Of a DNA stretch of 64,000 nt, positions 3,601-36,274 are shown piece by piece. The number at the start of each line of letters is the position of its first letter. The first letter of the stretch is position 1. Position numbers and translations under genes: made by a program. The stretch comes from Squalus acanthias (lineage: Eukaryota): NCBI GenBank assembly GCA_030390025.1, contig CM059432.1, positions 56,112,001 through 56,176,000 of the forward strand. Reading direction: 5' to 3'. The notes under the pieces are model-generated. The model saw only the letters and a program-made list of their open reading frames with translations. It searched no databases and had not been told where the DNA came from.

Positions 3601-3708
3601 ATTTAGGCTCAAATAACAGTGGATACTATGATCTAATGGCCGTGCTCACGCATCAAGGCAGGTCGAGTTCATCTGGTCATTATGTAGCTTGGGTTAGAAG
3701 AAAATCAG
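3601..3708 (+). CDS. USP14: USP14 penultimate coding exon (His box)
   Basis: AG at 3599-3600, GT at 3709-3710; 108 bp encoding (D)LGSNNSGYYDLMAVLTHQGRSSSSGHYVAWVRRKS, the USP14/Ubp6 His box; phase matches the next exon. Confidence 0.97.
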
Positions 3709-5156
3709 GTAATGTTTCTTGTTTTATACACTCATTTTGCATTGACCAACTAATAAAACAAAGGAACTTTCAGTAAGTCAGTCAGAAACGATTTTATTTT
3801 TCACTATGCAGAGTAGTAACATTTTGGAACTATCCCGTGGAGTGGTTGGGTGTGGGTCCACCCGCTCAGTTTCCTATTTAAGTTGCGTCTGTGAGGAGAA
3901 CTGGTGAGCAGAGTTCCGGTAGCTTTTTTTGGATCCGTTTTCTTTCCAAATAGACGTTGAGGGTCAAAACATGGGACACGCAGGTCAGCGCAAGGCAGCA
4001 GCAGGTTTTTTTTGTTGAAAATGTGGAATGAGGAGCTCTTTACCCAGTATCCATAGCGGCAGAGAAACTGCTCTATCTCTGGGATTGAATGGTTGCACGG
4101 CTCTATCGCAGGGATCGATCGCTTTCTCTGCCGTTATGGATGCTGGATAAAGAACTCCCCTTTTGACAAAAGCCATTTCTTTCACAAAACCCGCTGCTGC
4201 CTCTCACTGACCTGCATGTACTGACCTCACCAGCCTTCTGAATCAAGGAAAGCATGTGCGACAGCGCGAGGGGCCGTCCATTCCTGCCTCGACGCCATGT
4301 TCATACACTTTCAGTAGCTGCTGGCAGCTCCTCTTTCCCCTGACCCTGCCATCGTCTTCTTTCCCTCGGCTTCTAATGGTGGATCCGCTACTTTGAGGAA
4401 CTTTGGCTTTGTGGTGTGAAGGTGGCTGGCTGTCCTGGGTGTCTCTGCTGCTCTATAGAGTGATGGACAGGCCTGAGAGTCCCAGCTATCAGTCAGTCTT
4501 CCTACAGACTCACTGCTCAAGCAGAAAACTGCAATTTCACTCCTACACATAATGTGACCTGCTGTGTTTTCCCTCCCAGATGTTCTCAATCCGTTCTTAG
4601 ACTTGCCTTTGGAAGCTTCAATATACCGGCACAATGTGTCGTCATGTTTCCCCCTTTTTTTTGTCCTGTGACTTCCCTAATGCCGCTAAGTAGAACTGAG
4701 AAACGCAGTTCATTACTGAAGTTGCACTCTGCTCCAAGTGAAAGCGGTTTGAAATTAAATGGGAATGTAGATGGCAAAACTGTTAAGTAAACAGCGCTGA
4801 ACGCTGGTGTGTGGGAGGGGGATTCTGGAATACAAGTTGCATTGTACTCCTAATGCAGAAATGTAACAATGAATACTTCAACATTTAATCTTGAGAACTT
4901 CTTTGCAACATGGCAATGTATTGTTCCACTGTGGGTAGGAGGAGGAATTTAACAATGCAATCATCTACTCTCTTGGACCCAAATTGATTGCAGCTTTGTA
5001 GCAGTGGTTTGTACACCTGAAAATTGTAATCCCAGAAAGGACAGTGTTGTGTAGTGTAATATATAAAGCCTTCAGTTTTCTTGTGGCTTGTGCTTGCGAA
5101 GTAAAAATTGGCCCCAAACGGACAAGGAAATGATCAAGATCAAGCAAGGTAGCTAC

Positions 5157-5366
5157 ATAAAAACAGAAAATGCTGGAAATACTCAGCAGGTCAGGCAGCA
5201 TCTGTGGAGAGAGAAACAGAGTTAACGTTTCAGGTCAATGACCCATCGACCTGAAACATTAACTCTGTTTCTCTCTCCACAGATGCTGCCTGACCTGCTG
5301 AGTATTTCCAGCATTTTCTGTTTTTATTTCAGATTTCCAGCATCCGCAGTATTTTGGTTTTGTATT
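5157..5366. mobile_element. Penelope-like element remnant (inverted terminal-repeat palindrome)
   Basis: 84-bp inverted arms 5157-5240/5244-5327; 11-bp TSD AAGGTAGCTAC at 5146-5156 and 5367-5377; same family as 20437-20539. Confidence 0.8.
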
Positions 5367-5564
5367 AAGGTAGCTACGTAGTTAGCTGATCTCAGCCAGG
5401 GCAACAGTAAGAGTACAGCAATTGAACGAGGCCTATTGTTACTGGAGGGTGGAGGAGTGTAAAAATTGCCCTGGTTGCTGCTCCTTATCACTATCCGATG
5501 ACCCCTATTAGAAAGTGAACATGTGTGTAAACATCAGCCCAGCTATGATGTCTCCTTATTATTG

Positions 5565-5753
5565 CACAACACCAGGTTATAGTCCAACAGTTTTATTTGA
5601 AATCACAAGCTTTCGGAGCGGCTGCTCCTTCGTCAGGTGAAAGGAGCAGCCGCTCCAAAAGCTTGTGATTTCAAATAAAACTGTTGGACTATAACCTGGT
5701 GTTGTGCGACTTCTCACTTTTGTCCACCCCAGTCCAACACCGGCATCTCCGCA
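5565..5753. mobile_element. Second Penelope-like remnant (different family), palindromic
   Basis: 67-bp inverted arms 5564-5630/5641-5707; 12-bp TSD TCCTTATTATTG at 5553-5564 and 5754-5765. Confidence 0.8.
5603..5640 (-). ncRNA. Minimal type I hammerhead ribozyme motif
   Basis: Minus strand UCAC-CUGACGA-A-GGAGC(AGCC)GCUCC-GAAA-GC-UU-GUGA: stem I, core, 5-bp stem II, palindromic AGCU in place of stem III. Confidence 0.75.
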
Positions 5754-6082
5754 TCCTTATTATTGAATAGCCCATAGCCATTCATTGTCCACATTCGTAT
5801 ATAAATAATGGCCCAAGTGCTAGAAGACTGCCATGCCTATGGAACTAATCTGGAGCACAAGGCAGCATCTTCAGGAAGGAGAAGAGAAAACTGCTGGTTA
5901 AGAAAGGACAGTTTTTATATTACATTAATTATTATAAAAAGAGGGTACAATTTACCTTTGCCTCCCCCCTCCCCTCCTAACATGAATCCTCAGTTATATC
6001 ACATTGTGTAACTGGGCTGGTGTTGGAGCAACACTTCCCACTGCATACTGAGCAGATATATGCTGCAGATTGGACTGCTGGA

Positions 6083-7056
6083 CTAGGAACAGGAGTAGGC
6101 CATTCAGCCCCTTGAGCCTGTTCCACCGTTCAGTGAGATCATGGCTGATCTGTATCTTAACTTTATCTACCCACCTTGGCTCCATATCTTTTAATACCCT
6201 TGGCTAGCAAAAATATATCTCTCTCAGATTTAAAATTATTAATTGAGCTAGCATCAACTGCTTTTTGCAGGAGAGAGTTCCACACTTCTACCACCCTTTG
6301 CATGAAGAAGTGTTTCATAACTTCTCTCCTGAATGGCCTAGCTCTAATTTTACGGTTATGTTCCCTTGTCCCAGACTCCCCCACCAGTGGAAAAAGGTTT
6401 CTCTCTGTACCCTATCAATTCCTTTCAAAATCCAAAAAACCTCCATCAAATCAACCCTTAACCTTCTATATTCCACAGAACACCAGGCTAGTTTATGTAA
6501 TTTCTCCTCACAATCTAACCCTTGGAGCCTTGGTAGCATTCTGGTGAATCCGTGCTGCACTCCTTCCAAGGCCAATATATTGTTTCTAAGTGCCCAGAAC
6601 TGTACACAGTACTCCAGATGTGGTCTAACCAGGGCTTTGTATACCTGTAGCAAAACTTACTCCCCTTTATATTCTAGCCCTCTAGTTATAATGGCTAACA
6701 ATCTATTAGCCTTTTTGATTATTTTTGTACCGGGCTACTACATTTTAATGATCTGTGTACATAGACCCCATAATCTCTTTGGACCGCCACTGTTCCTAGC
6801 GTTTCACCATTTAAATAATACTCTGATTTATCCTTCTTTGGTCCAAAATGGATGAGCTCATACTTGCCTCCATTGAAATCCATCTGCCACAGTTTTGTTC
6901 ACTCACTCAATCAATCAATGTCTCTTCATAATTTTATGCTCCTGCCTACACTACTTACTATACCACCAATCTTTGTATCATTGGCAAACTTGGATATATG
7001 GCTCTCTGTTGTGTTATCTGTCATTAATAAATATAGTGAATAGTTGAGGCCCCAGG
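6083..7056 (-). mobile_element. CR1 LINE 3' fragment
   Basis: LVRPHLEYCVQFWA and RVVEVWNSL motifs with frameshifts; CR1 tail. Confidence 0.9.
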
Positions 7057-7952
7057 AATATTTGAGGACTATTTTAACTAATACATAAAATACTCCTGCT
7101 AGATGAGTGAAAGTATAAATTCATGAAAATCAATGTACCAGTTTATGTGGGAAGAAAAAAACCTGCCACCAAATGAAATTTGAGTGTTCAATAGAGAAGG
7201 ACCTACTTTCCTGGCTCCACATGCTGTTAGGATGTGATCGCCACAAAACTGTGTGCAATTGAGAATTGGCTTTTGGCAATTTATCCCAGTATCTTTTTAC
7301 CTGAAGATTGAACATGTTTTTTGAGGATGTGCATCTTGCTCCCAGATCTTCATCAGCACCTCTTCTGGTTGGCTGCTGAGAAGTGAGGTTCTGTCGAAGG
7401 AGGGCATTTCCGACTGCTTTTTCTTCCCTTGCTCACACGCTTCTCCCTTGCAGGGAGGTGTCACATCCTTCCACAAATACAGCTTAGAAGTAAGTGGTGT
7501 AGGGTGTAGAACCCATGACCTTCCCACTCTTAAATGACAGCCCTTGAATATTTTTTATTTTAAAATCACTTGAACAATTCCTGCTTATTTAAAAAGTTAA
7601 TACTGGAAGGAAGCTTTTGTTCCTTTCAAGTATCAATTTCATTCAACATTGATAATAGTTCCAAACCACCTGTGGTCTTTGGCAGCCTTTGCTTTGCTGC
7701 TGGTATCTTTGTTCATGAATGTTTTTATATCTGTGCATGTTTAATTTGTGTAGGTGTGCAGTAGAGCTGTCGCAAAATTTTGAAGTCTTGCCTGTTGCAA
7801 CTGTGTTCCAAGCTAAACTGAAAGCTTTGAAGTAAATTTAGAATATCAGTTTGCGCAACCTACACACATGTATATTGCAACAAAAGTTTGTATGTCATGA
7901 GTACTTAAATGTGGAGATTTTCATTTCTCATTTTTATTTAATTGTTTTTTAG

Positions 7953-8104
7953 ATGAGTGGATCAAATTCGACGATGATAAAGTCAGTGTTGTGGCACCTG
8001 AAGATATTCTGAAGTTGTCTGGTGGTGGTGACTGGCACATAGCCTATGTTCTATTGTATGGGCCTCGTAGACTAGAAGTAATTGAAGATGAAGCCCCGCA
8101 GTGA
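7953..8104 (+). CDS. USP14: USP14 terminal coding exon
   Basis: Pyrimidine tract and AG at 7951-7952; (D)EWIKFDDDKVSVVAPEDILKLSGGGDWHIAYVLLYGPRRLEVIEDEAPQ then TGA at 8102-8104. Confidence 0.97.
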
Positions 8105-9072
8105 TGTCATAGTTGAGCACGACCACCTTCATTTTCCTTATCCTGCATGGCTATATTACTGTTGTATGATGCCTTCACTTTCTGTAGCTTACCTTACTCA
8201 GAGGTAAGACTGTAAAGGGAAGGTGTTGCCTCAACTGTGACCCTGGTACTGCTTCACATCATCTACCAAACCTTTCAAAAACAAATCAGGCATTAGTTGA
8301 GGAAGACCTGTGGATTTGATCTGTTCTTAATTCTGACATTTCTCACTATGGAATAATAATTAAAAAAAAGCAAGTGATCCATAATTCTTCTGTTTTGTTC
8401 CTTTTATGTTAAATGTGGTTTTCAGTCACGTGGTTAATGGTGACTGGTTATGTGATGCTGTACAAGAGAGGAACAGAAAGTTAATACTGTGTTGAATGGG
8501 ATTTCTTTTCATTCTTTGACTAATTACATATTGGAAATTAAAAATACAATGTAAACTACATTGTAAATACAAGCCAAGTTCTAATATTTTTTTCCATTAT
8601 TGTATTGCTGCTCCAGCCAAAACCAGTTTGCCTAAAACCACATTTTGTTGTATAATGTAAATTCATAAAACTTTTCTGTTTCACAAAGTTTGTGGTTTAA
8701 CTTTATTATATGAACAAGAATTGTTGAAAAATAACCTAATTGTCACTCTGAACCTAAGTATGTGATTGATTCATCACCTGATAATTTGTTATTTAGGCAT
8801 TGGATTTGAATCCACCCACAGTGCTGAGTTCCTGAGCTCAGGTGGGGGAAATTAAGTGGGGGCCTCATGTTTTTTTATAGGAAGGGAGAGTCAGTCGGCA
8901 GCCACTTTGTGCACTGCCTGGCGGTCAGTTCATAGCCTGGGTACGTAGCTGGACCAGGTTGCCTGTACTCCAACAGTTGATGTGTGGTCCGGAGTCCACA
9001 CAGTGGAACAGAATGCTGCCCTCTACACCTTTTTTTAATTTATAGAAAACGTGCAATTTCATTTCAACTTTG

Positions 9073-20436: not shown

Positions 20437-20539
20437 CAGTTCTGATGAAAGGTCATCGACCTGAAACGTTAACTCTCTTTCTCTCTCCACGGATGCTGCC
20501 TGGCCTGCTGAGTTTTTCCAGCGTTTTCTGTTGTTATTT
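20437..20539 (+). mobile_element. Penelope-like terminal fragment inserted in CR1
   Basis: 12-bp TSD CTGATAATCTAC at 20425-20436 and 20540-20551; homologous to 5244-5330. Confidence 0.85.
20438..20474 (+). ncRNA. Minimal type I hammerhead ribozyme motif
   Basis: AGUU-CUGAUGA-A-AGGUC(AUC)GACCU-GAAA-CG-UU-AACU: stem I, core, 5-bp stem II, palindromic ACGU. Confidence 0.75.
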
Positions 20540-30706: not shown

Positions 30707-31319
30707 CTGGAAGCAGTCACAAAAGTGATTAATGGTTCTGCAGTTCAAGTTTTAAAGACTCCTTTCTCCCAGGGAGTTTCACTTTAAATCCTGTCCATCA
30801 TAAATAACTAAACGCAACTACTTTAACAGTCACATGCCCAACGTGACCGTGGGAATTTTAGGTAAGAATATAAAAATTGGACTACTTAAATTGCACACAT
30901 TTATGTAAAGGCTACAAAATCAACATGCATGACATATTGTAGCCACTTGCACTTTTTAGTGGTCCACTGGCTGCATATGGAATGCCTTAGAAAAGAGAAA
31001 ATTTCAAGATTTTGAAAAATGAGCTATTTTAAAATGGTAAAGGTCTTAACTTATCAAATCTATTTACAGCTCTCTTACCCAAACGGACCGTTAAGAAGAT
31101 GAAGGAAAACTTCTACAGCTAACAGGGATAATATGCTACTCAGAGACCTACTGCTCCTGCCCCACCCTCACTGCCATGGGGAGAAGTTTTAGGAAAAGTT
31201 GCATGGGGTGGGGGGCACACCAACTTTGGAGGCGCTGTTCCAGAATTTGACTGGCAATTTCCAATGTAGCTTCATGGGGAATTACTGGTATAACTGGGGT
31301 GAATTTTGTTACAGTCTTT

Positions 31320-35787: not shown

Positions 35788-36274
35788 GCCAGTTAGCTGG
35801 TCAGTCTATTGTACAGATTGAGCCAGTTAGCTGATCAATCTATTGTACAGATTGAGCCAGTTAGCTGGTCAGTCTATTGTACAAATTGCGCCAGTTAGCT
35901 GGTCAATCTATTGTACAGACTGCGCCAGTTAGCTGGTCAATCTATTGTACAGATTGCGCCAGTTAGCTGGTCAATCTATTGTACAGACTGCGCCAGTTAG
36001 CTGATCAATCTATTGTACAGATTGAGCCAGTTAGCTGGTCAGTCTATTGTACAGATTGAGCCAGTTAGCTGGTCAGTCTATTGTACAGATTGAGCCAGTT
36101 AGCTGGTCAGTCTATTGTACAGATTGAGCCAGTTAGCTGGTCAATCTATTGTACAGATTGAGCCAGTTAGCTGGTCAATCTATTGTACAGATTGTGCCAG
36201 TTCGCTGGTCAAACTATTGTACAGATTGTGCCAGTTCGCTGGTCAAACTATTGTACAGATTGTGCCAGTTCGCT
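35788..36274. repeat. 34-bp minisatellite, ~14.3 copies
   Basis: Unit GCCAGTTAGCTGGTCARTCTATTGTACAGATTGA with exact 34-bp period. Confidence 0.97.

Follow-up and report, generated by a model that had tools for sequence, protein, structure and literature searches.

The hammerhead ribozyme motif lying antisense to USP14 in Squalus acanthias belongs to a 191-bp head-to-head stump, specific to the lineage, of a Penelope-like retrotransposon (PLE) that is abundant and young and, by its linker, of Neptune type. The best explanation of the findings as a whole, to which a probability of about 0.8 is given, is that the hammerhead is a passenger in a stump made by RNA priming at both target strands, with the two resulting ends united either by end-joining or by bridging from a nearby copy. 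The DNA analysed is a stretch of 64,000 nucleotides (contig CM059432.1, positions 56,112,001 to 56,176,000 of the forward strand), here called the window, and coordinates are positions within it.

The hammerhead alone adds little, as thousands of such motifs are known in PLE-bearing animals. The family matters for the question of how PLE head-to-head ends arise, which can be approached by counting here, as a single chromosome-scale assembly contains young stumps by the tens of thousands, all rich in markers.

The hammerhead and the insertion that carries it

The minus strand from 5640 to 5603 reads, in order, UCAC, CUGACGA, A, GGAGC, AGCC, GCUCC, GAAA, GC, UU and GUGA, exactly as an earlier note on this DNA had it, and the class proposed there, a minimal type I hammerhead of a Penelope-like element, is borne out by core, stems and palindrome. 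The core CUGANGA and GAAA-NN-UH is present with stem I (UCAC/GUGA), stem II (GGAGC/GCUCC), an extra A, and the palindromic tetranucleotide AGCU in place of helix III; cleavage is predicted after CUU, between 5607 and 5606. Identification of the intact motif (5603-5640, minus strand) rests on sequence pattern, folding and family covariation. Folded in isolation, it forms stems I and II with pair probabilities of 0.65-1.0, and its folding energy by itself is unremarkable (z of -1.6 to -1.8). The broken sense-strand twin was likewise described correctly, with CUGACG missing and A for G at 5657 in the plus-strand segment 5641-5668. The motif does lie within the span 5603..5668 that had been given for it, which is merely the centre of the larger insertion at 5565-5755.

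The search with hammerhead models that had been proposed as a check gave a divided answer. Rfam returned no hammerhead in the window at the gathering score nor any among 34 weak matches, an outcome to be expected where helix III is missing, and the exact intact pattern was found 25,086 times in the 3.7-Gb genome with no match for a reversed control, so the motif is not a product of chance. Among 315 family motifs the palindrome is AGCU in 294 and ACGU in 17, position 17 is U in 304, and the extra A after position 9 occurs in every motif type tabulated. The proposed check for covariation was positive, with double changes in 8 of 11 pairs and 99% of cells paired, in a set of 10 hand-picked sequences from two families whose selecting descriptor itself demands pairing. 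Stems and palindrome covary across subfamilies and in a second family, and the source elements therefore keep a real hammerhead.

The insertion consists of two head-to-head pLTR ends, a one-sided tail of 38 nt and a 12-bp target duplication. The left duplication, TCCTTATTATTG, occupies 5553-5564 on the plus strand, shares its last base with the element and is delimited by contigs of the empty site; the right one, again TCCTTATTATTG, lies at 5754-5765 (plus strand), its first two bases being shared with the tail. An inverted, tail-less pLTR arm (5565-5641, minus strand) begins at roughly +3 of the predicted pLTR transcript. It meets the tailed arm (5641-5717, plus strand), which is 5'-truncated inside the hammerhead core, at a centre junction (5631-5641, strandless) comprising a 10-nt spacer and a 1-nt overlap at 5641. 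The Penelope "tail" follows at 5718-5755 (plus strand) and ends just before the ATG of the element's ORF. Segments 5564-5630 and 5641-5707, separated by the 10-nt spacer, are 99% complementary, and the sole difference between these 67-bp arms is a G-to-A change at the CpG position 5657. What had been called a disabled twin is thus a 5' truncation plus one CpG change. Classification as a MITE was rejected: copies have no fixed size or centre (10th to 90th percentile of inner length, 67-243 nt), the one-sided tail makes their termini asymmetric, and the sequence is continuous with a PLE ORF.

Other repeats occur in the window. A second head-to-head PLE stump, of another family, lies 200 bp upstream in the same USP14 intron (5146-5377), with 84-bp arms at 5157-5240 and 5244-5327, a one-sided extension, a duplicated AAGGTAGCTAC, and hammerhead cores truncated on both arms. 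That intron also holds an imperfect nested inverted repeat at 3976-4219 (34-bp and 67-bp arms), by inspection unrelated to both PLE families. Further away are an intact second-family hammerhead within a LINE fragment (20438-20474, plus strand; stem I AGUU/AACU, palindrome ACGU) and a tandem array of a 34-bp unit at 35788-36274 (14.3 copies, 95% matches).

The source element and the probable passenger in USP14

A 35-mer taken from the arm matches the genome exactly at 30,718 places. Longer copies reach, on the upstream side, a GIY-YIG-type domain that has a C-X4-C-XX-C linker, and in four copies the sequence continues downstream past the tail to an ATG and an ORF. One copy, L195, is near full length, with an inverted tail-less pLTR, a pLTR, an ORF of about 880 codons interrupted by one stop and one frameshift, and a pLTR with tail. 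Motifs in its translation give the order of the full element as pLTR, ATG, reverse transcriptase (RT), zinc-finger linker, GIY-YIG and pLTR, so that L195 shows what marks an endonuclease-bearing PLE: pLTRs around one ORF with an RT plus a GIY-YIG domain at the C terminus. The C-terminal part of L195 matches shark proteins carrying PF00078 and PF26215; direct Pfam and NCBIfam scans of two ORF fragments gave no relevant family, and no intact ORF was seen among the family copies examined. The linker between RT and endonuclease, CHGNLCKTC in L195 and CHGKLCKTC in L032, has the CX2-5CxxC form, and by the definition available from PMC8557442 this sequence places the element as Neptune-type. Marks of PLE insertion, namely an inverted 5'-truncated copy, a tail at one end and a target duplication, are found in the window copy, and the tail pattern holds in 65 of 65 further pairs.

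USP14 as host gene, with the intact motif antisense to it, was correctly named in the earlier note. Positions 7952-8065 match solved USP14 with E 4e-20; the last coding exon up to the stop codon is placed at 7953-8104 (plus strand; sequence and USP14 match) and the second-last coding exon at 3601-3708 (plus strand; sequence and motif search). These exons join in frame, which places the element in the last USP14 intron. In three of four read sets (organisms B, C and D) a single contig joins both flanks without the element; the fourth set, from the organism with most shared words, gave no contig across the site. In B and C about 11 of 400 flank bases are different, and the insertion is therefore young. 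Conservation at the orthologous site, by which a domesticated intronic hammerhead is recognized, is absent, the site being empty in three relatives. Nor is the copy special in its sequence, as it is one among more than 25,000 near-identical ones.

Predicted folding argues against activity of this copy in place. In a 301-nt antisense read-through RNA, all nine hammerhead stem pairs have a probability of 0.000000, and likewise in an RNA stopped just past the motif; forcing the hammerhead fold inside the read-through would cost a predicted 43.6 kcal/mol, and the 67-bp hairpin of the arms is predicted at -127.1 kcal/mol. With the ribozyme predicted to be buried in so long a hairpin, an effect on USP14 is unlikely, and the window's hammerhead is likely a passenger, inert for the gene. 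Minimal PLE hammerheads cleave not at all as monomers and at a low level as dimers in the experiments excerpted from PMC4209133, and protein-assisted hammerhead cleavage has been found dispensable for insertion (PMC11167929).

The state of the motif was tallied in 64 head-to-head pairs (sampled as described below): both arms are intact in 23, only the tail-less arm in 16, only the tailed arm in 17, and neither in 8. One-armed loss thus occurs in 33 of 64 pairs, and one intact and one broken motif, as in the window, is routine. Of the 64 tailed arms, 4 start near the cut site (+36/+37), two of which are siblings, and beyond these there is no peak. It had been implied that the antisense hammerhead was kept to act on a USP14 antisense transcript and that selection disabled the sense copy, and the intact antisense motif, the two lesions in its sense counterpart and the covarying family motif do accord with this. 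It is nonetheless highly improbable: the insertion is young and absent in three relatives, the ribozyme fold is predicted to be inaccessible, cleavage by minimal PLE hammerheads is poor and does not occur in monomers (PMC4209133, as excerpted), and neither arm is preferred in core loss (tail-less arm 17/64, tailed arm 16/64).

Formation of head-to-head stumps and their shared centres

The sampled pairs all come from a single 13.5-Mb stretch of one chromosome (C1, 0.2-13.5 Mb), where 106 anchor groups comprised 65 head-to-head pairs, 36 single anchors and 5 others; 64 pairs were used after one duplicate was dropped. The tail is on exactly one arm in all 65 pairs, and the longest flank match is 12-13 bp in 39 of 62. 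The pLTR has a TCACTT initiator with a TATA box 30 nt ahead of it, and the A of this initiator precedes the hammerhead core by 7 nt. Tailed arms end exactly at this A, the predicted +1, in 13 of 64 pairs, the highest single count, and within one base of it in 19 of 64. Such a peak agrees with reverse transcription running to the end of a short pLTR transcript; the additional G that copying of a cap should leave was only weakly seen, in 14 of 21 arms.

Comparison of the two arms within pairs was also informative. Among pairs whose loops are of standard form, the indel type of loop II is discordant in 16 of 48, or in 15 of 47 once a duplicate is left out. Arm disagreement grows toward the centre, and outer-arm mismatch is 2.1% (39/1856). 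The outer marker AAA(A/G/C)CT is discordant in only 7 of 58 pairs, against 53% expected for independent templates. Since the outer marker agrees far beyond expectation, two freely drawn RNAs are too simple a source, and same-source RNAs or later homogenization are needed to explain the agreement; taken with loop II discordance, the arms are therefore neither simple mutual copies nor free draws from the family. Fold-back self-priming on one template (PMC3846280, in the text available) would make the inverted arm, with whole stumps occasionally hopping locally. To its credit are the window arms, identical bar one CpG change, the outer markers concordant in 51 of 58 pairs, and sibling pairs that are 97-99% identical over the element. 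Fold-back should give identical arms, however, but about a third differ by subfamily indels, and these discordant arms argue against its plain form; the peak of arm starts falls on the predicted sense start site and not on an antisense feature, and a tail moved to the other arm, as in two sibling pairs described below (L047/L049 and L238/L239), would need an extra template switch under whole-unit copying. This account is consequently regarded as unlikely.

Strand-specific editing was considered and rejected, as a G-to-A excess on tailed arms in 30 BLAST-ranked copies was gone in the pattern-selected sample and so reflects selection toward the query. Separately, the centres of L044, L067, L107 and L131 contain short repeated fill-ins, which we take to be of the kind made in polymerase theta end-joining, and one contains a 109-nt piece of another repeat. 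The long arm of L060 carries a short patch of another subfamily's stem II/loop and is otherwise identical to its sibling L056, which suggests short conversion tracts or template switches. Target duplication GAGTATATTCAA is common to independent insertions with different centres at one LINE site (L047, L090, L117, also L016 and L077), a sign that the endonuclease has a sequence preference. In L091 (1000-3150), about 2.1 kb hold three distinct head-to-head stumps belonging to two subfamilies.

The preferred mechanism, priming by both target strands, may be set out as follows. The element's protein would cut the two strands about 12 bp apart, and each 3' end would prime reverse transcription at either of two internal sites of the pLTR transcript, one giving a tail and the other none. 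Both cDNAs would extend toward the transcript's 5' end; TATA box and initiator set this end just upstream of the hammerhead, which is why most arms are only 80-130 nt. Being of the same polarity, the cDNA ends could not anneal and would therefore be trimmed and joined otherwise: usually by end-joining with microhomology, the step that would have removed CUGACG from the window copy, and in a minority by a bridge copied from the centre of a nearby genomic head-to-head copy. The change G5657A would be later CpG decay.

The bridging step derives from centre junctions shared by neighbours. Four idiosyncratic junctions were found solely in neighbouring copies 0.1-1.4 Mb apart with unrelated flanks. 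Three of these, each seen twice in the C1 sample, were searched genome-wide. Two of them have 2 copies each, lying 104 kb apart in one case and 0.91 Mb apart in the other; the remaining one has 3, of which two form a segmental duplicate situated 0.53 Mb from the third. In all three sets flanks and target duplications are unrelated. If 10,000 two-copy families were placed randomly, 0.13 would be expected to lie wholly in this 0.36% of the genome, and three or more such local families would have a probability of 3.5e-4. Genome-wide secondary masters behind the repeated junctions were rejected on the totals of just 2, 2 and 3 copies. An unbiased test used two whole junction classes with 41 and 73 matches, of which 91 were left after removal of 18 on unplaced contigs, 3 known and 2 duplicates. 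Two same-junction pairs less than 1.5 Mb apart were found among them, on C19 (1.40 Mb; a junction that no other copy has) and on C13 (0.88 Mb; junction also present twice on C10). With roughly 47-57 same-breakpoint pairs, counted by eye, 0.08-0.10 would be expected (P about 0.004); the C13 pair by itself is not significant. The rate of local sharing is modest, at 4/91 in the unbiased classes, and 6/64 for idiosyncratic junctions in the C1 sample.

Simple microhomology junctions behave differently from these, their 49, 13 and 5 copies being dispersed over many chromosomes. The 49- and 13-copy junctions each include one close pair (1.2 or 6.4 kb apart), and four further close pairs of the 49-copy junction, 0.9-2.5 Mb apart and with outer markers differing in three, count neither way. 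The window's own junction has four dispersed look-alikes elsewhere, and no local sibling in the 244 kb around it. Excluded as segmental duplicates were the close pairs L060/L061 and L041/L109 and those on C29, C5, C10 (44.4 Mb) and C62; L010/L245, 50 kb apart, were rejected as sharers because their junctions differ.

In two sibling pairs, that on C19 (L238/L239, at 24.77 and 26.17 Mb) and the 104-kb pair on C1 (L047/L049, at 2.94 and 3.04 Mb), the tails are on opposite arms, and the outer marker of the C19 pair is A/A in L238 and G/G in L239. Siblings that differ in tail arm or outer marker have a common centre but ends of other origin. Post-insertion gene conversion, in which a break at the palindrome's centre would be mended off a copy nearby to give shared junctions and discordant arms, predicts these signs too: sharing restricted to neighbours, a tail on either arm and a common inner part. 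The unlike outer markers of L238 and L239, and the difference of L148 and L149 at two tail markers, resemble conversion, for which neighbouring Alus offer a precedent (PMC8230782, in part). However, conversion among Alus is reported there over about 10 kb, against 0.1-1.4 Mb here, and the natural donor after insertion would be the sister chromatid, whereas at insertion no allelic donor would carry the element. Later conversion is a serious contender at somewhat under even odds. Bridging at insertion is put forward in an equally tentative way: in PLE integration both target strands would be RNA-primed, and the cell could copy the centre of a head-to-head unit that lies elsewhere on the chromosome, within about 1.5 Mb.

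Relation to known systems and meaning

Hammerhead and stump layout are of already known kinds. The motif resembles the metazoan PLE hammerheads excerpted from PMC4209133 in lacking helix III, in the extra base between 9 and 10.1, in G10.1-C11.1, in the palindromic 15.2-16.2, in a short helix I, in thousands of dispersed copies, and in pairs on opposite strands 100-700 bp apart. The 25,086 exact copies exceed the 4,000-9,000 given there for coelacanth and frog; sharks are unnamed in the excerpted text, and U at position 17 (304/315 motifs) sets the present family apart. The stump is like a typical Penelope insertion as described in the available parts of PMC3846280 and PMC8557442, with a head-to-head inverted pLTR, one end bearing a tail of 30-40 nt, a pLTR that contains TATA and a TCACT initiator, and the Neptune CX2-5CxxC linker; L195 has the same layout. 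In those parts the inversion is ascribed to self-priming or left open, and neither discordant arms nor neighbour-shared junctions appear. Animal non-LTR retrozymes, as far as the excerpt of bioRxiv 10.64898/2026.07.22.740005 extends, are similarly PLE-derived, non-coding and hammerhead-bearing, and are reported in one cartilaginous fish. Retrozymes are head-to-tail tandems of monomers between hammerheads, whereas the insertion studied here is a single head-to-head pair, with no tandem array at its site, of a family whose centre varies by copy.

For the anole PLE Poseidon it was shown in vitro that both strands are cut and extended, that two internal start sites bound the tail, and that the hammerhead is unneeded (PMC11167929), as in the mechanism proposed here. 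Poseidon belongs to a different clade, its ORF starting inside the hammerhead rather than about 95 nt past it as here, and the joining of two cDNA ends is not addressed for it. Preferential sharing of sequence by neighbours is known from Alu conversion, but here, unlike in the available part of PMC8230782, a whole rearrangement junction is common over 0.1-1.4 Mb. No description of PLE junctions shared between neighbours turned up in the literature searched, which took in few subscription papers and neither Repbase nor supplements.

Junctions confined to neighbours are unexpected for an element that moves via RNA. If the sharing arises at insertion, host homology repair would be part of PLE integration; if it arises later, repeat conversion would reach a hundred times farther than reported for Alu. 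Should the tentative account of bridging be true, insertion would be in part RNA-templated and in part templated by neighbouring chromosomal DNA, and local junction lineages would record the range of homology search in the shark germ line.
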